This document shows, one piece after another, positions 5,750-15,914 of a DNA stretch of 64,000 bases. Origin of the DNA: Verrucomicrobiota bacterium (GTDB lineage Bacteria; Verrucomicrobiota; Verrucomicrobiia; Limisphaerales; CANJXF01); NCBI GenBank assembly GCA_038214755.1, contig JBBQRQ010000002.1, positions 73,398 to 137,397 of the forward strand, in the 5' to 3' direction. How positions within the stretch are numbered: position 1 is the first letter of the stretch; each line of letters starts with the position of its first letter. Under the pieces are notes generated by a model, which searched no databases, had not been told where the DNA came from, and worked only from the letters and a program-made list of their open reading frames with translations. Position numbers and translations under genes: made by a program.

Positions 5750-7144
5750 TCAGTCTTCAGCGCGCTCGCCATGCGGCGCCATCTTCACGAGCTTCGGATC
5801 GAATTGGCCGATCGTTTCCACCAAGTCGGATTGCGCAGCCATGACCGTATGAATGTCTTTGTAAACCATCGGCGCTTCGTCAAGGCCAGCGGAAATGAGC
5901 GTCACTCCGCGTTCGCGCAGAAATTGATTCACTGCTTTCCAATTGAAAGTTTGCGACGCGCGAGTGCGGCTCATGACACGTCCCGCTCCATGCGAAGCAG
6001 AATGCAAAGATTCAGCATTCCCTTTTCCACGAACAACAAATCCGGGGGTCGCCATTGAGCCAGGGATTATTCCCAACACACCCGTGCCCGCTGGCGTGGC
6101 ACCTTTGCGATGCACCACGACCTCACGCTCTACGCCCTCGATAACGTGCTTTTCTTTCCAGGCAAAGTTGTGGTGGTTTTCCAGATCGAGCAAGACCTGC
6201 GCGCCGAGATTTTCCGCGATGTGTTTATGAATGCAGGCGTGATTCGCGGCGGCGTATTGTCCCATCAATTCCATCGCGTTCCAATACTCCTGCCCTTCCT
6301 GCGAATCGAGCGACAACCACGCGAGCCGCTTCAATTCGCTCGGCAAATCGGGAAACTGGCTGAACGCGATCTTGCTGTAGTAATCGCAGACCGACGCGCC
6401 TGTGCCGCGACTCCCGCTGTGTGACAGCAACGCCACATAAGTGCCCGGTTCCAATTCGTTGATTTTCGAGTGCGCCGTGAATAGACCAAACTCGACAAAA
6501 TGATTGCCGCTGCCGCTCGTGCCGAGTTGCGACCACGCGCGGTCTTTGTTTTGTTTCGTAATTGGACTGACCGACCAGTCCGCGTCGAGCACGCCGTGGT
6601 GGCGACGCTCCTTGAAATTCGCGCCGATGCCGAAGCGCGTCTCCGCTTCGATGGCGCGCGTGAGCCGGTCCTGCTTGCGTTCCAGATCGCGCAACGGCAG
6701 ATCGAGCACCGTCATCTTCATGCGGCACGCGATGTCCACACCAACGGCGTAAGGAATCACCGCGTTCTCGGTGGCCAGCACGCCGCCGATGGGCAGGCCG
6801 TAGCCCACATGCGCGTCCGGCATGAGCGCGCCCGCCACCGAGATCGGCAACAGACACGCCTTTTCCATCTGCATCACCGCCTCATGTTCCAAACCTTCGC
6901 CCCATTGCCGATACTTCACCGGCTCGGCGCGCGGCGGCGGTGGCGCATGGAGCAACGCCTTCGCAAGCTCGCCGCGCAATGCGTCATCCACGAACGCCGC
7001 CGGATTGGCGACAATGGCCGCGACATCTTCGTGCAACCGCGACTTGTCGCCGCCGCCGAGGATAAACTTGCAAACAAAATCCGTCGCGCGCCGGGTGGCC
7101 TCGCCGAGCGGAACTCCCGTTCGTAAAAAATCTTTCGCATTCAT
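5750..7144 (-). CDS. rtcB: RtcB RNA 2',3'-cyclic phosphate/5'-OH ligase with N-terminal extension
   Basis: Intact motifs MPDAHVGYGLPIG, VGVDIAC, GSGNHF, HSGSRG, HHN, HRKGAT, SHGAGR. Confidence 0.95.
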   Translation of the reverse strand: MNAKDFLRTGVPLGEATRRATDFVCKFILGGGDKSRLHEDVAAIVANPAAFVDDALRGELAKALLHAPPPPRAEPVKYRQWGEGLEHEAVMQMEKACLLPISVAGALMPDAHVGYGLPIGGVLATENAVIPYAVGVDIACRMKMTVLDLPLRDLERKQDRLTRAIEAETRFGIGANFKERRHHGVLDADWSVSPITKQNKDRAWSQLGTSGSGNHFVEFGLFTAHSKINELEPGTYVALLSHSGSRGTGASVCDYYSKIAFSQFPDLPSELKRLAWLSLDSQEGQEYWNAMELMGQYAAANHACIHKHIAENLGAQVLLDLENHHNFAWKEKHVIEGVEREVVVHRKGATPAGTGVLGIIPGSMATPGFVVRGKGNAESLHSASHGAGRVMSRTRASQTFNWKAVNQFLRERGVTLISAGLDEAPMVYKDIHTVMAAQSDLVETIGQFDPKLVKMAPHGERAED

Positions 7145-7178: not shown

Positions 7179-8471
7179 TCACTTTTGCGCCTTGCTCAAC
7201 TCCGATTCGATCTCCTCGACCGTCGGCAGGCTGCCCTTCAGATTCTTCGGCAGGGATTCGACGAGCTTGGTCTGCCATTGCGCGACGCCGATGGGCTTCT
7301 TCAAATCGCGCAACGCATATTCCACCGTCAAGTTGTCGCGCTCCTTGCACAGCAACAGTCCGATAGACGGCTTGTCATCTGCGTGACGCAACTGATCGTC
7401 CACGGCGGAGAGATAGAAATTCATTTTACCGGCGAACTCCGGCTCAAAGGCTTTCATCTTCAAATCGATCACCACGTAGCTGCGCAACCGCAGATGATAG
7501 AACAACAGGTCGAGATAATAATCCTGCCCGCCAATTTCCAGGTGAAACTGCCGTCCCACGAACGCAAACCCGACGCCGAGCTGAAGCAGGAACTTCTGGA
7601 TGTGATCCAGCAAACCCAATTCAAGGTCGCGCTCATGCGCGTCGGCGCGGAGCGTGAGGAAATCGAAGGTGTAAGGGTCTTTGAGCGTCTGCTCGGCCAG
7701 ATCGGATTGCACCGGCGGCAACGTGCGCTGGAAGTTCGTAACCGCCTTGCCTTCGCGTTTGTGCAATTGCGCTTCGATGTGGTGCGTCAGCACCGCGCGT
7801 GACCAGCCATGCTCGACGGCTTTGCGCGCATACCAAAGGCGGTCAGCGGCGGATTCGAGTTTTTGCAGCAACACAATGTTGTGACCCCACGGCAGCGAAG
7901 CCATTGGTTCGGGCGGAGCGGCAAATTCTGTTGCAGGCTGTGACAGTTTTTGCGCCGGGAATTCTCTTACAGCTTGTGAGAGAATCTGCGGTTCGGATTC
8001 TCCAAGTCGCTGAGGAAGAATCGCCTCCTCCGGCAATTGTCGCACAAGCTGTGCGACAATTGCCGAACCCGACTGAGCAGCCGCCTTTTTCCCGCCGCCC
8101 GGTAATTGTCGCACAGGTTGTGCGACAATTGCGTTCGCCGGTGCATAACCCAGGAAGAACGCCCTCATGCGATAAAGATTCTTGCGAGAAAATCCTGCCA
8201 TCTCGGGGAACTCCTCGGTCAAGTCATGCGAGAGGCGATCAAGCACGCGGTCGCCCCATTTGTGCGTTTTCTGTTGTTCAACGATGGCTCTGCCAATGTC
8301 CCAATACAACGCGATCAGCTCGCGATTGACGGAAACCGCCGCGCGAAGTTGCGACGCGCGGACGCGCATCTTGAGGTCGGCGAGAATGGTGGCGTAATCG
8401 GCAGGCAATGCGCTGGACGCTTTGCCGCCGATGGCTTTTGCCAAGCTGATGGTTGATTTCTTTTTCGCCAT
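7179..8471 (-). CDS. YhcG/DUF1016 PD-(D/E)xK nuclease-like protein with expanded repetitive linker
   Basis: VNRELIALYWDIG, GFSRKNLYRMRAF, LPWGHN, KDPYTFDFL, DLLFYHLRLRSYVVIDLK. Confidence 0.9.
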   Translation of the reverse strand: MAKKKSTISLAKAIGGKASSALPADYATILADLKMRVRASQLRAAVSVNRELIALYWDIGRAIVEQQKTHKWGDRVLDRLSHDLTEEFPEMAGFSRKNLYRMRAFFLGYAPANAIVAQPVRQLPGGGKKAAAQSGSAIVAQLVRQLPEEAILPQRLGESEPQILSQAVREFPAQKLSQPATEFAAPPEPMASLPWGHNIVLLQKLESAADRLWYARKAVEHGWSRAVLTHHIEAQLHKREGKAVTNFQRTLPPVQSDLAEQTLKDPYTFDFLTLRADAHERDLELGLLDHIQKFLLQLGVGFAFVGRQFHLEIGGQDYYLDLLFYHLRLRSYVVIDLKMKAFEPEFAGKMNFYLSAVDDQLRHADDKPSIGLLLCKERDNLTVEYALRDLKKPIGVAQWQTKLVESLPKNLKGSLPTVEEIESELSKAQK

Positions 8472-8506
8472 ACCCAGAGTTAGCCGGTGATTCCTGGTTG
8501 ATGATG

Positions 8507-8593
8507 TTAAAGGTGGATTGGGTTGAAAAGCCTTTCCAAACGGGCAGCTTCACCCAGCGGCACACCGAGAGGAATAAAATCTTTAGTGTTCAT
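8507..8593 (-). pseudogene. Diverged copy of the rtcB 5' end
   Basis: Reads MNTKDFIPLGVPLGEAAR... versus RtcB MNAKDFLRTGVPLGEATR; 28 codons then stop. Confidence 0.85.
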
Positions 8594-8635
8594 GAAAAAT
8601 GCGTTTCAACAGGAACAGTGCCACCACCACCAAGC

Positions 8636-9769
8636 TCACGCTATCGCTTGGCGCAATTCGCCCGGCGAAACAATTGAAAGTTTCAGCCTATCCTGAACCC
8701 GCTCATACGCCGGGCCGTTCAATGGGCTGACCACATAGTTTTTCCCTTTTGGATACTGTTCGCGAAACGCCGCCAGCCCGCGCGTTTCAAACGCATCCGC
8801 TTTCCATTTGCATTCGATGGCGTCAACGGCATCGCGGCCGCGCGGCACGACGAAGTCCACTTCGCGCTGCTGTTTGTCGCGCCAGAAATGAATCTTCGGC
8901 AGATTGGCGGCGATAAGGGTGTCCAGCACGAGATGCTCCCACAACACGCCGCAATCCTCCGTTCGCAAATGATCCCAGCCGCGCGCGTGGCAGACCAACC
9001 CCGTGTCAAAACCGAACACCTTCGGCTGCGCCACGATCTCCCGCCGCCCGCCTGCTGAAAACGGACGCACCAAATGCGCCACATGCGTGATCTGATAAAC
9101 CTCCAGCCAGTTCGTGACGGCAGGCCGGCTGATCTGGCTTTCGGCGGCCAGCTTCGTCACGTCCAGCATCCCGCCGCTTTGGCGCATCAACAATTCCAGC
9201 ACGCGCAGAAAACCGGCGCGTTTCTCCAGCCGGAAAAGCTCCTGGACGTCGCGCGCGAAATAGGAATCCTGCCACTCGGCGTAGAATTCTGGATTGTGTT
9301 TCTCCGCGAGCAGCGCGGGCGGCAATCCCCCGCGCAACAAACGTTCCCGCAAATCCGTCACGCCGAACGCCGCCAATTCCTCGTGCAACACCGGCACCAG
9401 CTGCACCACCCGCTTGCGCCCCGTCAGGCTGTCGCGGAACTTTTGCGTGGCCGCGAGCGTGGACGAACCCGTCGCCAGGATTTTCAATTTGGGAAAATCA
9501 TCCGCGCCAATCTTCAACAGCCGGCTTGGATCGGGAAGCTGATGCACCTCGTCGAACACCACCAGCCGCTTTTTCACGGAACGGAAAAAACTCTCCGGAT
9601 CGCGCAGCCGTTCCGCCACGCTGGGCAGGTCGCAGTTGAGAAACTCCGCGTCGGGAAAGCTCTGCGCCAGCACCGTCTTGCCCGCGCGCCGCGGCCCGCT
9701 CAGCCAGACAATGGACGCCTGTTTCCACGCGGCGACGAGCCGTTCAGTCCAAAAAGGTCGGTCAATCAT
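8636..9769 (-). CDS. AAA_14 + DUF4143 ATP-binding protein
   Basis: Walker A GPRRAGKT, Walker B VFDEVH, TGSS, C-terminal EVDFV...IECK. Confidence 0.9.
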   Translation of the reverse strand: MIDRPFWTERLVAAWKQASIVWLSGPRRAGKTVLAQSFPDAEFLNCDLPSVAERLRDPESFFRSVKKRLVVFDEVHQLPDPSRLLKIGADDFPKLKILATGSSTLAATQKFRDSLTGRKRVVQLVPVLHEELAAFGVTDLRERLLRGGLPPALLAEKHNPEFYAEWQDSYFARDVQELFRLEKRAGFLRVLELLMRQSGGMLDVTKLAAESQISRPAVTNWLEVYQITHVAHLVRPFSAGGRREIVAQPKVFGFDTGLVCHARGWDHLRTEDCGVLWEHLVLDTLIAANLPKIHFWRDKQQREVDFVVPRGRDAVDAIECKWKADAFETRGLAAFREQYPKGKNYVVSPLNGPAYERVQDRLKLSIVSPGELRQAIA

Positions 9770-9775
9770 GGCAGG

Positions 9776-9811
9776 CAGACTTTACGTTTAGACGGCTAAA
9801 AGTAAAGTCTG
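9776..9811. promoter_or_regulatory. 36-nt palindrome just upstream of AAA-DUF4143 gene (candidate operator)
   Basis: CAGACTTTAC-G-TTTAG acgg CTAAA-A-GTAAAGTCTG; 15 of 16 pairs. Confidence 0.5.
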
Positions 9812-9907
9812 GATTCGGCGCGCGGCGTTTACGCCGCTTCAACTCCCGGCTGTTGAGCGCCGCAGAGATGCCTCACGATGTCGTGCGGTGAAGCGGACTG
9901 AACTTTG

Positions 9908-10140
9908 AATCCCAACGGGATTCCAGCGTTCAGCCAAAGGTTGCGACGAAGGAGCTATCTTGGGTTCGCATCCCAAAATATCCACAACCCCAACGCGGGT
10001 TGCATCGTTTTCATTTATCCGTTTCTGATTCACGGGCGGACGCAACTCCTTCAGAGTTGAAATTCTTTTTTCACGTTTTCCCAGGGTAGCTCGTTCCTCG
10101 CAACCTTGGGCTGACTGACGAAATCCCGTTGGGATTTTCA
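9908..10140. repeat. REPIN/MITE-like palindromic element (AATCCCAACGGGATT family)
   Basis: Inverted ends AATCCCAACGGGATT...AATCCCGTTGGGATT; related copy at 18931-19198. Confidence 0.75.
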
Positions 10141-10150
10141 AAAGCATGAG

Positions 10151-10246
10151 CCGTCGCGCGCCGCGTGGCTTCACCCGGCGGCACGTCTTGGCGCGCCGAA
10201 GTTGGACGCAAGGGGGGACGAGACGGAGAAAATCTTTGGCGTTCAT
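10151..10246 (-). pseudogene. Second diverged copy of the rtcB 5' end, interrupted by a short insert
   Basis: MNAKDFLRL, about 30-nt insert, then VPPGEATRRAT; DNA resembles 7081-7144. Confidence 0.85.
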
Positions 10247-10316
10247 GTCAAACAAGGGTCGTCCTCCCATTCGAGAACTTGCGCGTTCGTCGCCCCCGTC
10301 ATGTCAGCCCACGTTT

Positions 10317-11057
10317 TCACAACCAAATGTCCGTTCCTGCGGCGAGCCAGTTCGGAACCATCTTCTGATGCTGCCAGTGTTCGCTTTGCTGCACCTTCTC
10401 CACAAACTCCGGACGGACCAGTTTGGCGCGGCCTGTCACATAGCCGTCGGCCTCACTGCGAACGTAAAGTCCTTCCATCAAATTGTCGGTCTTGCCCGTG
10501 ATTGGATTTTCAAAAGCGCTGTCAAACGCCGATGGCACGATGAGCGATTCCAGTTCGTCTGCCTTGGCGCGACCGCGATGAACGATAGGCACAGTATGAA
10601 GGCCGGTTCCGTCCAACATTCGCTGACGAGCGGCGAGGTCGAGAAACTGCCCGGCGTCCTTGTCGTAAATGTCGAACTCGAAAAAGTAATGCGGTAGCTT
10701 GCAATAGTGGACGGAGTGCTTCGCGTAGAGCCATTCGCCGTAGAGGATAAACTGATTACCGAGCATTCCTTCGAGGACTGGGCGCTTCACCGAAGTCCAC
10801 TGCTTGAAGAGATCATATTGCGGATGCATGCCCTCGGTAATTTCGTGACCACGGCATTGCAGCACCATGCGTCCACGGGACGTGAAATGAATTCCAACGT
10901 TCGTGCCATCAATCTTCTCCGCCACAATCAACGAAGGGTCCGCGATCAACCTCTCAGATTCTTTTTGGCCAAGATGTTTGTCGCCAGCAGTTCCCTTCGA
11001 CCCGAACAGATGCGGTGTGCGTGGGTATTTGATAAAATCATCGCGGGTCGCTCCCAT
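10317..11057 (-). CDS. ATP-dependent RNA ligase family protein
   Basis: KYPRTPHL, motif I EKIDG, YGEW, EFDIYD, MEGLY, RAKLV. Confidence 0.85.
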
Positions 11058-11123
11058 AGCAGTAATCGAGTTTGGTTGAATTAAGTTGGGAGAGCGAGCT
11101 TTGACGCCCGCTCTCCCGTTGTT

Positions 11124-11195
11124 TCATTCGTTCAAGAACAGTTTCCACTCCGTGATGCCGTGGGCGTTGCGGAGGAGCGCCGTGACCGGCAGTTT
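11124..11195 (-). pseudogene. Duplicated 3' end of the HNH gene
   Basis: LPVTALLRNAHGITEWKLFLNE* versus LPVTALIRNAHGIAEWKLFLNA* ending at 12549. Confidence 0.85.
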
Positions 11196-11222
11196 CCCGC
11201 CTTGCGCGACCGTGGTACGTTT

Positions 11223-12470
11223 TCACAGACAAGACCACGGGAGCGCCGTCACCTTGTCGTGTATTTGCAGCGGCTGACGGCAGCGGCAAATGATGTAGGC
11301 GTGCTTCGCGTGTTTCGGATGTTCACCCAAGAACGTCAGGAGATGACGCGCGTCGGAGAGCGTCGGGTTCTCCGTCCATTTCACTTCAATCGGCGTCAGG
11401 CCGCCTTCGCGCTGGATGATGAAGTCCACTTCCGCGCCGTCATGGGTGCGGAGGTAATGCAACGTGCCCGTGCCAAGGTATTGCAGGCGTTTCCAAAGTT
11501 CGACTCCCACCCATTGCTCGAAGAGCGGGCCGGGATTCGCCAGCACCACATCGGTGTTGGGCCGCAACCCGGCGGCGGCGTGGCGGATGCCGAGGTCGAA
11601 GAACAGGAAGCGGTCGGTGGAGAGCAGATTTTTTCGCGGGCTGCCGGAATATGCTGGCAGACGGAAGCCGAGAAACATGTCTTCCAAAAGCTGGTAGTGG
11701 CTCTTGATGGTCGGCACGGACAGGCCTACGTCCTTGGAAATTTTGTGGTAGTTCACCATCTGCCCGGACTCGACGGCGGCGAAGCGCAGGAAGCGCACGA
11801 ACGCGGGCCAGTCCTTCACCATCGCTTCGCGCCGCATTTCCTCCTCCAGATGAAGTTGCGTGTAGGCGTGCAACATCTCGGCGCGATGCGCTTCGTCAGC
11901 GGTGACGACGCCCGGGAGTTCGCCGAAGGCGAGTCGTGTGAGCAGGTCGGCGCGCGGAAATGGTTTCGTCGGGCGCTTCCCGTCCGGCCAGTCGAGCGGC
12001 AACGGCGGCGGGGCGTCAAACTCAGCGGGCGATTCGGCAGGCGGGCGTTCAGTCAGCGTGAGCGGAAAAAGGCGGTGCAAAAAGCTGCGGCCCGGCAGAA
12101 GGTTCGCGCCGGTCTGCCGCAACTTGCGCGCGGAACTGCCGCAGAGGATGAACCGCCAGCGTTTCTTGTCTCCGTCGTAAAGATGCTGCACGGCGTCGAA
12201 CAGCGCGGGCACGTTTTGCGCCTCGTCCACGAACACCCACGCGCCGCCTTCGCGCTGTCGCAGGCCACGGCAAAGTGCGATGAGGTCGTCCGGGTGGTTG
12301 AGATATTGCGCCCGCACCTTCGGAATGGAGAGGTCAATGCGCGCGGCGTGCGGCGGCAGGAGATTCTGAATGAGGGTGGATTTGCCCGTCTGCCGCGCGC
12401 CGAACACGATATGCACATACGGGGCGGCGAACTTCTTTCGCCAAAGGGATTCGGGCCAGCGGGTGAACAC
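11223..12470 (-). CDS. AAA_14 + DUF4143 ATP-binding protein
   Basis: GARQTGKS, FVDEAQ, CGSSARKL, EVDFII...IEVK. Confidence 0.9.
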   Translation of the reverse strand: MFTRWPESLWRKKFAAPYVHIVFGARQTGKSTLIQNLLPPHAARIDLSIPKVRAQYLNHPDDLIALCRGLRQREGGAWVFVDEAQNVPALFDAVQHLYDGDKKRWRFILCGSSARKLRQTGANLLPGRSFLHRLFPLTLTERPPAESPAEFDAPPPLPLDWPDGKRPTKPFPRADLLTRLAFGELPGVVTADEAHRAEMLHAYTQLHLEEEMRREAMVKDWPAFVRFLRFAAVESGQMVNYHKISKDVGLSVPTIKSHYQLLEDMFLGFRLPAYSGSPRKNLLSTDRFLFFDLGIRHAAAGLRPNTDVVLANPGPLFEQWVGVELWKRLQYLGTGTLHYLRTHDGAEVDFIIQREGGLTPIEVKWTENPTLSDARHLLTFLGEHPKHAKHAYIICRCRQPLQIHDKVTALPWSCL

Positions 12471-12484
12471 GGCTTGGTTTTAAT

Positions 12485-12520
12485 CGCCTGTTATTGAAAG
12501 TCAACTTTCAATAACAGGCG
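12485..12520. promoter_or_regulatory. Perfect 36-nt palindrome upstream of AAA-DUF4143 gene (candidate operator)
   Basis: CGCCTGTTATTGAAAG tcaa CTTTCAATAACAGGCG. Confidence 0.5.
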
Positions 12521-12548
12521 TTTAATGAAAACGCGATTCGCGCGCACC

Positions 12549-12806
12549 TCAGGCATTGAGGAACAGTTTCCACTCCGCGATGCCGTGCGCGTTTCGGATG
12601 AGCGCCGTCACCGGCAGTTCCTTCGGCGCGCGCGGAACGTTGAGCAATTTCAATACGGCTTCGTGCGGCAGGCGGTTGCCCTTTTTCGAGTTCACCGCTT
12701 TGTTCGCCCAGACGCAATTCTCCCACGCATCTTTTCCGCCGCGCGAACGTGGCAGGATATGATCGATACTGCCTTCCTCCGGCTTCAGAATTTTGCCGGT
12801 GTATTG
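12549..12806 (-). pseudogene. HNH endonuclease, 5'-truncated
   Basis: QYTGK...SIDHILPRSRGGKDAWENCVWANKAVNSKKGN; upstream sequence is tRNA-like and gives no credible start. Confidence 0.75.
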
Positions 12807-12827
12807 GACCAGCCTCCCGGAATTGAA

Positions 12828-12905
12828 TGGTGCGGCAACCGGGAGTTGCACCCGGACGAACGGAAGACTTGCAGGTCGCCGCCTGGGCTACTCGGCTAAT
12901 AGGAC
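12828..12905 (-). tRNA. Chimeric tRNA-like pseudogene (Cys-GCA-like 5' half fused to an unrelated 3' half)
   Basis: GTCCTAT-TA-GCCG-AGTAGCCCA-GGC-G-GCGAC-CTGCAA-GTC ... CCGGG-TGCAACT-CCCGG-TTGCCGC-A-CCA; acceptor halves do not pair. Confidence 0.6.
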
Positions 12906-12913
12906 ATCAATCG

Positions 12914-13160
12914 TTACTCTCGGAAGTAATGATCGCGCCGACTTCCGTCATAGCAGCCAGACTGCAATCAACAATTTTTGAAAGCTGCGTCCTGAGCCGC
13001 ACGAACAAAGATCGTTGCGTCCGAGCTTTTCATGAAGCTCCTTAGTTCCATAAACGATGCGGGAACCTTTTTTCAAGCGAGTTTCCGATGGATACCCTTT
13101 GCGACGTTTGCTGGTGATCTCGAAAAAACGGGCTGTCTTGATGAACCGATTGATTTCCCT
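12914..13160 (-). pseudogene. SEC-C (GRNDxCxCGSG) small protein split by +1 frameshift, degenerate
   Basis: Frame 0 ...[17 protein letters not shown]; +1 frame [25 protein letters not shown] followed by AGG where ATG is expected. Confidence 0.7.
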
Positions 13161-13280
13161 TACGGCCTCCGGCTTAGGGGTTGTGGTTGTGAATAACTAA
13201 TGCTTGAAATTTTTTCCTTCTAACGCGACAACAGAACTGCGCGACGAACAGCTTTGATCCAAATACCGGCTTTGAGATCT

Positions 13281-13360
13281 TTGTGCCGGGGCGTGGATTG
13301 CTCCTCGGAGCAGTATTCCGCTTGCGGAAGCGCCTATCTCCTTTGAGCGTTCGCCGCGCA
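13281..13360 (-). ncRNA. Candidate structured RNA downstream of the His-like tRNA
   Basis: GGCG...CGCC closing two hairpins (TTCCGC-AA-GCGGAA and TGCTCC-GA-GGAGCA); T-arm-like GGAGCAATCC. Confidence 0.35.
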
Positions 13361-13374
13361 TTTACTTTTTGAAT

Positions 13375-13451
13375 TGGTCAGGAAGCCGGCATTTGCACGC
13401 GGACCGTCTCCTTCACAGGGAGAGATGCTGCTAATTACACCACGATCCTGA
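13375..13451 (-). tRNA. Non-canonical tRNA-like gene, anticodon GTG (His)
   Basis: Anticodon arm TCTCC-CTGTGAA-GGAGA, D-arm GTGT-AATTAGCA-GCAT, T-loop TGCAAAT, encoded CCA; T and acceptor stems imperfect. Confidence 0.7.
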
Positions 13452-13456
13452 TTTGA

Positions 13457-13542
13457 GCGCGGAACGCAGAACGCGGAACGCGGAAAGAAAAACTCGCGCG
13501 CGATTGATCTGATTTCCACGTTCCGCATTCCGAGTTCCGCGT
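13457..13542. repeat. Heptamer-repeat hairpin spacer (GCGGAAC)n...(GTTCCGC)n
   Basis: Tandem degenerate 7-mers in inverted orientation between two tRNA-like genes. Confidence 0.7.
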
Positions 13543-13548
13543 TTGAAA

Positions 13549-13622
13549 TGCTCCCACGTGGACTTGCACCACGAACCTTCTCCTTCGCAGGGAGACATGC
13601 AGTTCTATTACACCTTGAGAGC
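13549..13622 (-). tRNA. Non-canonical tRNA-like gene, anticodon GCG (Arg)
   Basis: Acceptor GCTCTCA/TGGGAGC, anticodon arm TCTCC-CTGCGAA-GGAGA, T-arm CGTGG-TGCAAGT-CCACG. Confidence 0.75.
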
Positions 13623-13630
13623 GGAAAGAA

Positions 13631-13715
13631 ATTTACGATTTACGAATGACGATTTACGCGGGCAAATCCAAATCGTCAGCCGACTCGTAAATCGTAAATC
13701 CAAAATCGTAAATCG
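13631..13715. repeat. Heptamer-repeat hairpin spacer (ATTTACG)n...(CGTAAAT)n
   Basis: Tandem 7-mers in inverted orientation. Confidence 0.7.
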
Positions 13716-13718
13716 AAA

Positions 13719-13746
13719 TGGTATCCGTGGCCGGACTTGCACCGGC
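13719..13746 (-). tRNA. 3' fragment of a tRNA-like gene
   Basis: GCCGG-TGCAAGT-CCGGC-CACGGAT-A-CCA; 5' part missing. Confidence 0.6.
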
Positions 13747-13863
13747 TAGGTGGTGGAGATGAAGCGGTCGCGGAAACGTTTTAAAACGTCGCAAATAAAA
13801 GGAGCGGCATGACGGTGAATGAGTTGTTGATATTTTTCATAGCGGGAAAGTGGCCGGAACCCT

Positions 13864-13982
13864 CCACCGTTTCGAGTCTTTTCGTCGGCCTGCGCTACGC
13901 TCCGGCCTCCTCCAAGACTCGAAACGGTGGGAAGAATAAATCACTGAAGGTTTGATCGCACACACTGAAGGTTTGATCGCAC
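13864..13982. mobile_element. Probable IS-end relic: 17-bp hairpin plus tandem 20-nt duplication
   Basis: CCACCGTTTCGAGTCTT...AAGACTCGAAACGGTGG; CACTGAAGGTTTGATCGCAC twice. Confidence 0.35.
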
Positions 13983-14025
13983 CGCGACAGCTACAAATCT
14001 GAGTCGTGGCGACGGCGCGCTGCTC

Positions 14026-14096
14026 GTAGCCGCCGACGTGAGGAGGCGGATTCCGATCGGAAAACCACGAAACCGCCTCCTCACGTCAGCGGCTAC
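14026..14096. repeat. GTAG-type REP doublet
   Basis: GTAGCCGCCGACGTGAGGAGGCGG...CCGCCTCCTCACGTCAGCGGCTAC. Confidence 0.8.
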
Positions 14097-14143
14097 AACT
14101 TATGAAATTTTGATGGAGCGCGAACCAGATTTTTCCCGGAGAT

Positions 14144-14542
14144 TTATTCCTTTTTCTTTTTGAAAAATCTTGGGCCAGCCTCGCCTTGTCGTTGTTGAAC
14201 TTTGAGTTGGCCAAGAATGGAGACCCAACCGATAAAAATTTTATGCCATTGATTTTCCATGCTGCGGATGACGCCATCGGCCATTTCGCTGAGGTAGCGA
14301 ATGGAGGGCGCGCTCGAGATCAGGGCGAGGACGTCTTCCTTGGTCGGGGAGGGGCATTCCACGGAAGCGAGGATCAACTCCATTTCCTGAACGATGACGC
14401 TTTTGACTTCGAGGAATTGGATCTCGTCTTCGCTGCTGAATTTTTTTGAGCGGGCGAGGTTGACGAAATAATTAAATTGCTTGAGGCATTCCAAATAATT
14501 TTCCAACTGCAGGATGAGTTGTTCGTGGTCTTGGTGGCGCAT
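14144..14542 (-). CDS. Hypothetical helical protein
   Basis: 132 aa ORF tightly linked to upstream operon. Confidence 0.7.
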   Translation of the reverse strand: MRHQDHEQLILQLENYLECLKQFNYFVNLARSKKFSSEDEIQFLEVKSVIVQEMELILASVECPSPTKEDVLALISSAPSIRYLSEMADGVIRSMENQWHKIFIGWVSILGQLKVQQRQGEAGPRFFKKKKE

Positions 14543-14547
14543 AAAAT

Positions 14548-14850
14548 TTAATCGTTGTAGGGCTGAAGTCCTTTTGGTTTGAGAAAAATAATGGCTCCGC
14601 CGCGAAGCTCGCGCGCGGTGATTTTAAAGCCGCCATAACGCACGATAATTTCGGACAGAGGCAAAGCGGCCTTGCGCGCATCCTGGAATACGCCCAAAAC
14701 GGTGCCGCTGATCTCGCCCATGTATTTTTGGGAGAAGGAATGCGGCAAGGTCGAGGCGAGCAAACGGCCCAGCGCATCGACGGTGAAACTGCCCGAAGGC
14801 AACCGCGCCAGTTTCGGAATCGGTTTGGAAAAAATATTTAAGAAGCCCAT
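14548..14850 (-). CDS. Small hypothetical protein, possibly roadblock/profilin-like fold
   Basis: MGFLNIFSKP...SGSFTVDALGRLLASTLP...ITARELRGGAIIFL; ATG at 14850. Confidence 0.6.
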   Translation of the reverse strand: MGFLNIFSKPIPKLARLPSGSFTVDALGRLLASTLPHSFSQKYMGEISGTVLGVFQDARKAALPLSEIIVRYGGFKITARELRGGAIIFLKPKGLQPYND

Positions 14851-15914
14851 TTGATTGAGATGTTTTTTAAGGTTTCGTAAAGTTGGTCCGCGCTCAACGT
14901 GCGCTTGAATCCAACGCAAAGTTCCGTGTCGCCGCGCGAGGCGATTCCTATGTGCCGCTGCAATCCCAGCCCTTCAACCTGCTTTAAATCGCCCGCCTGC
15001 AATTTTTCTCCGAGGTCGCGCAAGCGTTTTTGGGTTTGTCGGGTCCACGCCGCGACCGGGCTGGAATTTTCCAGTCCCCAGGAATCCGGCGCGGCTTTTT
15101 GATCGGCGGGAACGGTCATGACAAATTCCACGCCATCGATGCGCGAGAGAGCGGCCAGCGGGGAGCGCGTCAAAAATTTCGTGTCGCACGCGGCGGTTTG
15201 CGCGGAGGATTCCGAACCTTTATTCTCGTCAAAGGCCTGGGCGAAATCCAGAAGCAATCCTTGATAGGGAGTTAAGATCACCCGCACATGGTCCGGTTCA
15301 CCAGGCAAAATCTCGAAGCTGCCATTTTTCCACGACAAAATTTCTTTGAAAGCTGCTTCGCCACTCATGGTCAAGGTCGCCGCATCCATCACTTCGCCAT
15401 CCGTCACCCAAATATTTCCCTGCCGGCCTTCCTTCGTGATTTTCAAAACAGAGGAACTGTGCGAGAGACATTCCAATTGGATCAGATCAACCAGGCTCTT
15501 GCTTTGGATTCCGCGAAACCCGTTATCGACCTGCTGGCCGAGCAAGGATTCGATGCACTCGCGGAACAGATTTATTTCCTCTGACGTGCTGGGCTTTTCC
15601 CAAAATAAATCGATGCCCATGGCGTAAGCGCGAGTCCGATATTGTTCATCGACCACCGCCGTCATCACGACGATTCGCAGTTGAGGAAATTTCCGGCGCA
15701 CGATGGAGAGCACTTGCAGTCCATCCATCTTGGGCATCCGCAAATCAGAAATGAGCATCGTAAACGGCTCGGATTCCAGTATGGCAATGGCGCGCGCGCC
15801 GGAAGTGGAGGTGTGGATTTCCGGCTGGCTGGGCAATTGCCGGAGGACCTCCTGAAACAAATCGAGCAAGTCCTGCTCATCATCCAGCAGTAAAATTTTA
15901 TGGGGTTGGGACAT
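14838..15914 (-). CDS. Response regulator: REC + DUF4388/PATAN + degenerate C-terminal domain
   Basis: ILLLDDE, SDLRMPKMDG, KP; GFRGIQSKSLVDLIQLECLS...GEAAFKEILSWKNGSF. Confidence 0.85.
   Translation of the reverse strand: MSQPHKILLLDDEQDLLDLFQEVLRQLPSQPEIHTSTSGARAIAILESEPFTMLISDLRMPKMDGLQVLSIVRRKFPQLRIVVMTAVVDEQYRTRAYAMGIDLFWEKPSTSEEINLFRECIESLLGQQVDNGFRGIQSKSLVDLIQLECLSHSSSVLKITKEGRQGNIWVTDGEVMDAATLTMSGEAAFKEILSWKNGSFEILPGEPDHVRVILTPYQGLLLDFAQAFDENKGSESSAQTAACDTKFLTRSPLAALSRIDGVEFVMTVPADQKAAPDSWGLENSSPVAAWTRQTQKRLRDLGEKLQAGDLKQVEGLGLQRHIGIASRGDTELCVGFKRTLSADQLYETLKNISIKWAS

Follow-up and report, generated by a model that had tools for sequence, protein, structure and literature searches.

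The question raised by this locus is what to make of four tRNA-like units with an altered elbow, lying close together on the minus strand of the 64,000-nt stretch of bacterial DNA analysed here (the window): they could be decaying tRNA genes, RNAs that mimic tRNA, or members of a class of tRNAs built on a different plan. In ordinary tRNA, G18 stacks into the T-loop and bonds pseudouridine 55 (Psi55) and G19 pairs with C56, contacts that are among the most conserved in biology and around which tRNA finders, modification enzymes and structural models have been built. The units, read on the minus strand of positions 12600-14100 and here named D, B, A and C in that order, instead have G at position 55 and, where a D-loop is present, A at position 18. 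We consider it probable that they are the remnant of a conserved block of a supernumerary tRNA array, that the class to which they belong comprises genuine cloverleaf tRNAs with a rebuilt elbow, and that the likeliest role of this class is that of an alternative decoding pool, made together with RNA-repair enzymes under damage or translation stress. No description of a natural A18/G55 class of tRNAs was found in the full-text literature, a coverage that leaves most subscription journals outside.

As the original prediction had held, direct reading placed four tRNA-like units on the minus strand, with TGCAA at the start of every T-loop (TGCAAGT in units D and B, TGCAAAT in unit A and TGCAACT in unit C) and with AG and no GG in the three D-loops, those of units A, B and C, unit D having none. 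Each unit was also matched by R1, a covariance model built from array genes of relatives, with 62.6 bits for unit B (13546-13622, E 8e-17), 60.3 bits for unit A (13375-13449, E 4.5e-16), 24.8 bits for unit C (12828-12905, E 5e-5) and 21.7 bits for unit D (13719-13775, E 5e-4). Unit B, with A18 G19 and U54 G55 C56 as its elbow bases, is 86-91% identical to its Arg(GCG) orthologues (BLAST), and its 3' end reads TTT where every orthologue instead encodes CCA. Unit A is 95% identical to its best orthologue (L015:7000-7073, BLAST) and has a T-stem reduced to three pairs through two changes relative to the orthologues. Both units have a seven-base anticodon loop with U33 and a purine at position 37, and their anticodon arms differ solely at the middle anticodon base, as had also been predicted for the His-like and Arg-like units.

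The other two units are fragmentary. The last 32 nt of unit D match positions 47-78 of complete Glu(UUC) genes of relatives at 97% identity (L016:8715-8792 and L015:7394-7471, BLAST), and inspection of the sequence upstream of it gave no matching 5' acceptor strand or 5' half. In half-by-half BLAST comparisons, the 5' part of unit C was Cys(GCA)-like, and its 3' T-arm, acceptor strand and ACCA were Gly(GCC)-like; its anticodon and acceptor stems are, by direct reading, unpaired. Units C and D were also considered as duplications at a tRNA integration target, an idea that was dropped, since the two match different array tRNAs and unit C combines two parents. The window thus holds two genes and two fragments, and by R1 it lacks a same-strand array of about 20 or more genes. 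The units are evidently the eroded remnant of a larger array, since units D and C are fragmentary, the T-stem of unit A is damaged, unit B has lost its CCA and the HNH endonuclease gene adjoining them is truncated; unit B, the sole structurally whole gene, would need CCA addition.

Intact counterparts were found in related genomes. A DNA search with positions 12800-13800 against 60 relatives gave matches in 33 of 61 genomes, counting this one, many of them to the hairpins resembling repetitive extragenic palindromes (REP-like hairpins) that separate the units. Several genomes from other families within the order matched units D, B and A and the stretch 12915-13189 with their arrangement unchanged, and the gene order in the relatives is Glu-Arg-Thr-His, a small SEC-C-like open reading frame (ORF) and Cys. 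Records titled Verrucomicrobiota, Verrucomicrobiia and Limisphaerales contain the closest named orthologues of units A and B. When 32 array genes of relatives were aligned, the cloverleaf was paired in 93.8% of cells, as compared with 36-44% with the partner slid, and none of 500 shuffles reached the observed value. Across 276,501 bases, made up of the window, a second locus of this genome and 13 related loci, R1 gave 234 matches, with 30, 32 and 36 of them in single stretches of 13-20 kb (L014, L018 and L019, respectively). ARAGORN finds about half of the R1 matches in those stretches, and the array genes of relatives score 31-59 bits with the Rfam tRNA model. CCA is encoded in 211 of the 234 array genes, their anticodons cover 18 amino acids, and among 216 seven-base anticodon loops U33 is present in 178 and a purine at position 37 in 205.

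It was also clear that array His(GUG) genes are of two kinds, of which each genome has just one, with G-1/C73 in 5 of 13 and C-1/A73 in 8 of 13, the window included. In the C-1/A73 form the acceptor helix is shifted by one base, and compensatory changes support the shifted register. Unit A has this second form, as opposed to the G-1 and C73 of the genome's housekeeping tRNA-His, which agrees with the lack of these two identity elements that had been pointed out for it.

The altered elbow is not a trait of the host as a whole. ARAGORN made 51 calls in the 5.1-Mb assembly, of which 45 were confirmed as tRNAs by Rfam, and 43 of these 45 have the canonical TTCRA and GG, the exceptions being two copies of tRNA-Glu(CUC); a host-wide trait was therefore rejected, and, these two copies apart, the housekeeping tRNAs do not share TGCAA and AG with the units. 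R1 scored the canonical tRNAs of this genome at 51-64 bits, so the model is not blind to ordinary genes. A dispersed GC-rich repeat with two short hairpins, with copies on many contigs, was miscalled as tRNA-Ala or tRNA-Cys by ARAGORN (contigs C5, C37, C79, C93 and C99).

Standard tools recovered the units unevenly. In the window region ARAGORN called one gene, a tRNA-His at 13375-13450 (unit A). With permissive filters on positions 11500-15500, the Rfam tRNA model (RF00005) aligned all four stems of unit B, at 48.4 bits, and gave unit A 19.2 bits, which is under the 29-bit gathering cut-off, and in the same scan it gave no match to units C and D. Rfam at gathering thresholds listed nothing in the whole window, and unit B, with its 48.4 bits under relaxed filters, was missed both by that run, with its fast filters, and by a scan of its own genome.

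With regards to the elbow itself, 230 of the 234 array genes have a seven-base T-loop, in which position 55 is G in 216, U in 13 and A in one, such that related loci are neither ordinary nor unconserved in this respect. The same loops have C56 in 201, U54 in 166, C54 in 21, a purine at position 57 in 228 and A58 in 184. A18 is found in 196 of the 234 genes, and together with G55 in 188, with position 18 being assigned by model column and by the tRNA-Glu(CUC) comparison given below, not by structure. By sequence, the array genes thereby conform to the generic YGNRA T-loop pattern with a partner adenine.

The second elbow contact was kept in another manner. A standard 19-56 pair is present in 211 of 220 array genes, and of the 29 genes lacking C56, 24 still pair at 19-56 (C-G in 8, U-G in 6, U-A in 5, G-U in 4 and A-U in one), where 6.7 would be expected if position 19 were random and where none of 2000 draws exceeded 12. 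In three alignments, 19-56 was paired in 93.3%, 98.6% and 96.6%, with 5, 9 and 6 double changes (20 in all), and in each of the three none of 500 shuffles reached the observed pairing. As the 19-56 pair lies outside the model structure, fitting to R1 does not bias this count. The covariance model of homologues that the original prediction had proposed has thus been built, with 19-56 found to covary and A18 and G55 found to be coupled. At 54-58 the combinations were U-A in 164, A-U in 25, C-A in 14, G-G in 11 and C-C in 6 genes. Among T-loop variants in L014-L025 (alignments A3-A5), AGCGT or AGCAT was seen 25 times, GGCAG 11 times and CGCGC or CGCAC 6 times, with G55 always kept.

These patterns suggest that the contact between G18 and U55 or Psi55 has been replaced by one between A18 and G55, with the 19-56 and 54-58 pairs kept or co-varying. 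The T-loop would then have gone from UUCRA to the generic YGNRA form, which elsewhere docks an intercalating adenosine, and the L-shape would thereby be preserved; such a move to a generic T-loop with an adenosine contact implies that both changes must come together. T-loops outside tRNA have the consensus YGNRA (UGNRA in 88.7% and CGNRA in 10.9% of FMN riboswitches), and the base inserted between positions 4 and 5 is almost always adenosine, with tRNA, having U at position 2, as the exception, as given in the accessible part of a preprint (10.1101/2022.12.26.521914). The array T-loops, UGCRA or CGCRA with A18, resemble in this the T-loops of riboswitches, introns and rRNA, with the difference that the contact has been described outside tRNA (10.1101/2022.12.26.521914, as far as that text was available), whereas the docking of A18 in the array genes, and with it the three-dimensional equivalence of the two elbows, is what we infer from sequence alone.

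The two exceptional tRNAs of this genome gave a separate view of the coupling. Its only tRNA-Glu(CUC) is present as two A18/G55 copies (L001:6458-6532 and 7370-7444, corresponding to G000:C5:70457-70531 and 71369-71443), with a 3' fragment of the same tRNA at about L001:8806-8835. This tRNA is conserved, mostly in single copy, in the sample of relatives, where 48 of 61 genomes have it with 83-100% identity. Among 40 orthologues fetched, 27 have G18/U55, 13 have A18/G55 and none is mixed; 3 of the 27 were read by eye, and one of the 13 (L294) comes from a genome marked unpublished (G009). Five further, unfetched matches are 100% identical to the rewired tRNA-Glu(CUC) of this genome. Two canonical orthologues (L315 and L318) differ from it solely at positions 18 and 55. 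The rewired form occurs on two acceptor-stem backgrounds, each of which is also known in canonical form, which suggests that the state of this tRNA was switched more than once, or was recombined. Between the two copies in this genome, a toxin-antitoxin-like pair and a transposase-like ORF could be read from sequence alone.

The distribution of the class is wide and uneven. In a sample of 301 genomes from the order, the Arg-type gene was found in 37, spread over 26 of 144 genera, and in none of the 6 further genomes of this genus that the sample includes; in a phylum-wide sample of 401 genomes it was found in this genome alone. A scan of representative genomes of 185,579 species for two G55-type T-arms 60-90 bases apart gave at least 132 stretches, and as about 135 chance matches were expected by a rough estimate, single pattern matches mean little. 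R1 confirmed arrays in 49 of 80 loci fetched from among the stretches listed, which by record title belong to Verrucomicrobiota (many), Planctomycetota, Myxococcota, Gemmatimonadaceae, Pyrinomonadaceae, Cyanobacteria, Methylomirabilota and candidate-phyla bacteria. In mixed arrays of other phyla, 204 of the genes with G55 have AG and 18 have GG, and 58 of those with U55 have GG and 2 have AG, for which Fisher's test gave 2e-41, a value overstated through biased loci and kinship. In most of the 18 G55/GG genes, GG stands beside AG, such that they can still be read as A18 G19.

Contigs of IMG/VR, which are predicted to be viral and some of which may be cellular, matched the same pattern in at least 133 stretches, and R1 gave 351 matches in 26 of these loci, some of them overlapping. 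Among 106 distinct sequences in the best 150 matches, 84 were G55/AG, 15 G55/GG, 6 U55/GG and one G55 with neither. When a 1.65-kb piece of array was compared by BLAST with phage and plasmid records, only short matches of 73-79% to ordinary tRNA genes were obtained (3 phage, 10 plasmid). The patchy occurrence of the array, together with its presence on predicted viral DNA, points to horizontal spread.

What, then, would such tRNAs be for? The class looks like real alternative decoding tRNAs and not like mimics, because its members have full anticodon arms with U33 and a purine at position 37, encode CCA and cover 18 amino acids, and because a vertically conserved tRNA-Glu(CUC) has the same elbow. 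TruB cannot make Psi55 from G55, and TrmH cannot make 2'-O-methylguanosine 18 (Gm18) from A18. The sites for Psi55 and Gm18 would accordingly be removed in these tRNAs, and factors that read U55 or G18 would treat them differently, while the kept or co-varying 19-56 pair would leave intact the outer stacking surface that serves RNase P and the ribosome. If the L-array of Anabaena (Nostoc) PCC 7120 is taken as a guide, the class may form an alternative decoding pool deployed together with RNA repair, and its expression, charging and role at times of stress are inferred in that sense. As described in the part of the paper available to us, the Anabaena array remains silent as long as translation is unimpaired, shares its regulation with rtcB and with a homing endonuclease next to it, and comprises 26 tRNAs, of which 23 are charged (Santamaria-Gomez et al. 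2021, PMC8421152).

The likeness to the L-array is considerable. Both are supernumerary, same-strand arrays with a patchy spread, a neighbourhood of rtcB and CCA mostly encoded (PMC8421152, available part), and the HNH that adjoins the Nostoc trn operon is a homologue of the one in the relatives studied here (42% over 79 residues, E 9e-21). They differ in the elbow, since 16 of the 17 Nostoc genes found by R1 have TTCRA and GG and only the first, a Glu(CUC), has A18/G55, as compared with 216 of 230 rewired in the relatives. They differ also in that the arrays of relatives are interleaved with Ro60 and Y-RNA-like genes, the window having only two genes and two fragments. The portions of the Anabaena paper that were covered mention neither the elbow, the T-loop, G18 nor U55 (PMC8421152).

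Several points weigh against an alternative decoding pool. The loci of the pattern scan were chosen for two G55 T-arms, which inflates their G55 counts by construction, alignments A2-A9 were fitted to R1, and related sequences are not independent, which overstates the Fisher values. No Ser or Tyr anticodons were seen among the R1 matches, R1 being a model that aligns long-arm tRNAs badly. The His-like form that lacks G-1/C73 and has a shifted register argues against normal charging of that member of the array. This genome, which is 97% complete, gave no match to TROVE/Ro60, and the damaged copies in the window may do nothing in it. The link of the arrays to Ro60, finally, could point to a role other than decoding.

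A further reading starts from the same decoding tRNAs and takes A18/G55 as the self-mark of a second, orthogonal tRNA pool made by arrays and phages, which, its 19-56 platform being retained, would fit RNase P and the ribosome and be invisible to a factor reading U54-U55 or G18, thereby keeping translation running while the canonical pool is attacked. Candidates for such a factor would be a tRNA-directed toxin or defence nuclease, a quality control dependent on Psi55 or Gm18, or the HNH of the array itself, directed at ordinary tRNA genes, and the repeated flips of tRNA-Glu(CUC) would be traces of that conflict. We regard this as unlikely.

Unlikely, to our minds, is the view that the units are non-decoding tRNA mimics, kept out of translation by their elbow, which would either draw off tRNA-cutting toxins as decoys or sponges or partner Ro60 and RtcB in the manner of Y RNA. 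Pfam was run on 133 ORFs from 11 related loci (of 148 ORFs computed, the 15 of L021 being left out), and Ro60 (TROVE and vWA_Ro60) was found in 6 of these loci, RtcB, whole or in pieces, in 7, an HNH of about 200 aa in 3 and Band-7 in 3. TROVE is present in 31 of the 301 genomes of the order sample, 12 of which also have the Arg-type gene, and in 12 of 12 the two lie on the same contig within about 5 kb, a neighbourhood that speaks for mimics. So does the His-like form lacking the identity elements of histidyl-tRNA synthetase. A sponge role was, moreover, raised for the Anabaena array tRNAs by their authors (PMC8421152, available part), and the staphylococcal non-proteinogenic tRNA-Gly is likewise without G18 G19 and U55 C56 (Apostolidi et al. 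2015, PMC4574755, available part).

Full anticodon loops, 18 amino acids and encoded CCA would, however, be needless for a decoy, and the same elbow is found in 13 of the 40 fetched orthologues of an order-wide, single-copy tRNA-Glu(CUC). Moreover, the presumed Ro60 ligands of these very loci have an ordinary elbow. Upstream of Ro60 in L018, three Y-RNA-like matches were found (6992-7125, 7728-7859 and 7867-7990), one to the Deinococcus Y RNA with 53.4 bits (cut-off 80) and two to YrlA with 40.2 and 47.2 bits (cut-off 69), and the tRNA-like parts of these matches keep TTCGA and GG, while the tRNA genes around them have the rewired elbow. The units themselves lack the closing stem of Y RNA, and the Rfam models of YrlA and Y RNA gave no match at E up to 10 in 11500-15500, YrlA being a relation that the original prediction had entertained. 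Its assignment of the class to tRNA mimics is thus not supported, in view of the full anticodon arms, the encoded CCA, the range of amino acids and the ordinary elbow of the Y-RNA-like RNAs, and the roles it put forward, as decoys, ligase substrates or modification-independent emergency tRNAs, are hypothetical.

A comparison can also be made with the Ro60-YrlA-RtcB loci known from other bacteria, such as rsr-yrlBA-rtcBA of Salmonella (Chen et al. 2014, PMC4201824; Hughes et al. 2020, PMC7790460, both in the parts available). Ro60, RtcB and tRNA-like Y-RNA candidates do stand in one locus in the relatives. The units here differ in having anticodon arms and no Ro-binding closing stem, such that the proteins are held in common and the type of RNA is not (PMC4201824, available part). 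A gene within a few kb of Ro60 was found in 6 of the 11 related loci and not in the genome of the window.

According to another view, the units would be aminoacyl carriers for non-ribosomal reactions, like the cell-wall tRNA-Gly of staphylococci, with the elbow diverting them from the translation machinery; we hold this to be very improbable. Glu-tRNA feeds tetrapyrrole synthesis and some peptide-modifying enzymes, and the gene that opens the Nostoc trn operon and the rewired core gene are both tRNA-Glu(CUC), which would suit a carrier. The T-loop of the staphylococcal non-proteinogenic tRNA-Gly reportedly reads GUGC. That tRNA provides a precedent for an altered elbow in a non-ribosomal role, but, as far as the accessible text goes, it has U18 or C18 with U19, serves one amino acid and acts in cell-wall synthesis, whereas the genes here have A18 G19 and G55 C56 over most specificities (PMC4574755). 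Nearly every amino-acid specificity occurs in the arrays, and no transferase gene is consistently linked to them in the 11 loci.

That the units are ordinary tRNA pseudogenes, with TGCAA and AG as accidents of local decay, accounts for two of the four being fragments and the other two having damaging changes, and yet is scarcely credible, given that both changes are shared by 188 of the 234 related genes and are seen again in other phyla and on predicted viral contigs, with intact cloverleaves and compensatory changes, and that they toggle together in a conserved core tRNA. The earlier claim that the paired G18A/U55G change marks a selected, conserved class and not random decay accordingly stands for the class, as seen in hundreds of genes, in the covariation and in the paired toggle; it does not extend to the copies in the window, which are decaying, with two fragments, a damaged T-stem and a lost CCA.

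What the data reveal is a large natural class of tRNA genes in which one near-universal contact is swapped for A18-G55 and the other co-varies, present in chromosomes of several phyla and on predicted phage DNA, with an ordinary core tRNA passing cleanly from one state to the other. If expressed and charged, such tRNAs would represent a second workable design of the tRNA elbow, and routine annotation would undercount their genes, with ARAGORN finding about half and the fast filters of Rfam missing unit B. Spare tRNA sets linked to RNA repair might then be chemically distinguishable from the housekeeping pool, which would make the purpose of tRNA arrays testable. The window, as a decayed copy, is mainly a pointer to the intact arrays.

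The features of the locus are collected in Table 1. The HNH remnant is 61% identical to the 194-aa HNH of L018, from residue 77 onward only and across an in-frame stop, and the alignment passes through unit C in frame, with a stop codon. The full-length protein has 194-219 aa in relatives, and its N-terminal residues, about 90 in number, are lost or disrupted in the window. The SEC-C-like frame is in the same reading frame as the HNH remnant, is absent from the list of ORFs of at least 50 aa, and is 71-75% identical in DNA to stretches within the arrays of G013, G046, G037, G052, G044 and G047, where it lies between the His and Cys tRNA genes. RtcB of the window belongs to the NCBIfam RtcB family, under the equivalog cut-offs. 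The units had been predicted to head an RNA-repair operon, and the gene order agrees, with the PF09414 ligase and RtcB downstream on the same strand; an operon would fit that order, in which five other genes (7179..12470) separate HNH from RtcB. These genes are absent at that position in relatives, where HNH is directly followed by RtcB (L018 and L023).

Table 1. Positions in the window of the tRNA-like units and of the genes and elements around them
Feature	Position	Strand	Description	Basis
Unit D	13719..13746	-	3' fragment of Glu(UUC)-type array tRNA: T-arm, 3' acceptor strand, A73, CCA	Direct reading
REP-like hairpin between units D and B	13631..13718		Inverted repeats I3-I5, I7; many dispersed copies in this and related genomes	Inverted repeats
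Unit B	13546..13622 (13549-13622 without extra 3' bases)	-	tRNA-Arg(GCG), structurally intact	Rfam tRNA, R1
REP-like hairpin between units B and A	13470..13543		Inverted repeat I6; dispersed copies in this and related genomes	Inverted repeat
Unit A	13375..13450	-	His(GUG)-like tRNA, A18/G55, C at -1, A73	ARAGORN tRNA-His, R1
SEC-C-like frame	12948..13196	-	82 codons, Cys motif at end, no usual start codon	Translation
Unit C	12828..12905	-	Chimeric tRNA remnant inside disrupted HNH reading frame	R1, half-by-half BLAST
Array-linked HNH endonuclease, C-terminal half	12549..12851	-	HNH_4, HNH_5, HNH	Pfam
AAA_14/DUF4143 ATPase	11223-12470	-		Pfam
RNA ligase family gene	10317..11057	-	PF09414	Pfam, E 1.3e-33
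143-aa ORF	9839-10270	-	Without family	Pfam scan
Second AAA_14/DUF4143 ATPase	8636-9769	-		Pfam
YhcG PDDEXK nuclease	7179-8471	-		Pfam
RtcB RNA ligase	5750..7144	-	Last identified gene of the same-strand run	Pfam RtcB, E 6.6e-87

The REP-like hairpins of Table 1 have evidently been inserted between units of the array. A third hairpin, of a type seen in REP elements or miniature inverted-repeat transposable elements, lies at 14026-14096 and gave spurious matches to microRNA families in Rfam. Upstream of the array, on the minus strand, we noted two perfect 20-base tandem repeats (13942-13961 and 13963-13982), an imperfect hairpin with 32-base arms (13864-13930) and a 19-codon ORF (13781-13840), which together (13781-13982) could be a regulatory leader. 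Among 293 loci, the only match to the 20-base tandem repeat was in L002, this genome's own copy of the window region. A scan for sigma-70-type promoters in 12400-14300 found none, and terminator-like sites were not above shuffles (5 versus 3.1).

Unit A and the SEC-C-like frame are separated by an element of about 130 bases (13237-13369, minus strand), which shares 87% identity with a stretch of G046 and had further matches in G058, G036, G042 and G043. A permissive Rfam scan of 11500-15500 gave no match to it. Three of its sequences fold to a long closing stem, with two compensatory changes, and three internal hairpins, and we regard the element as a candidate small RNA.

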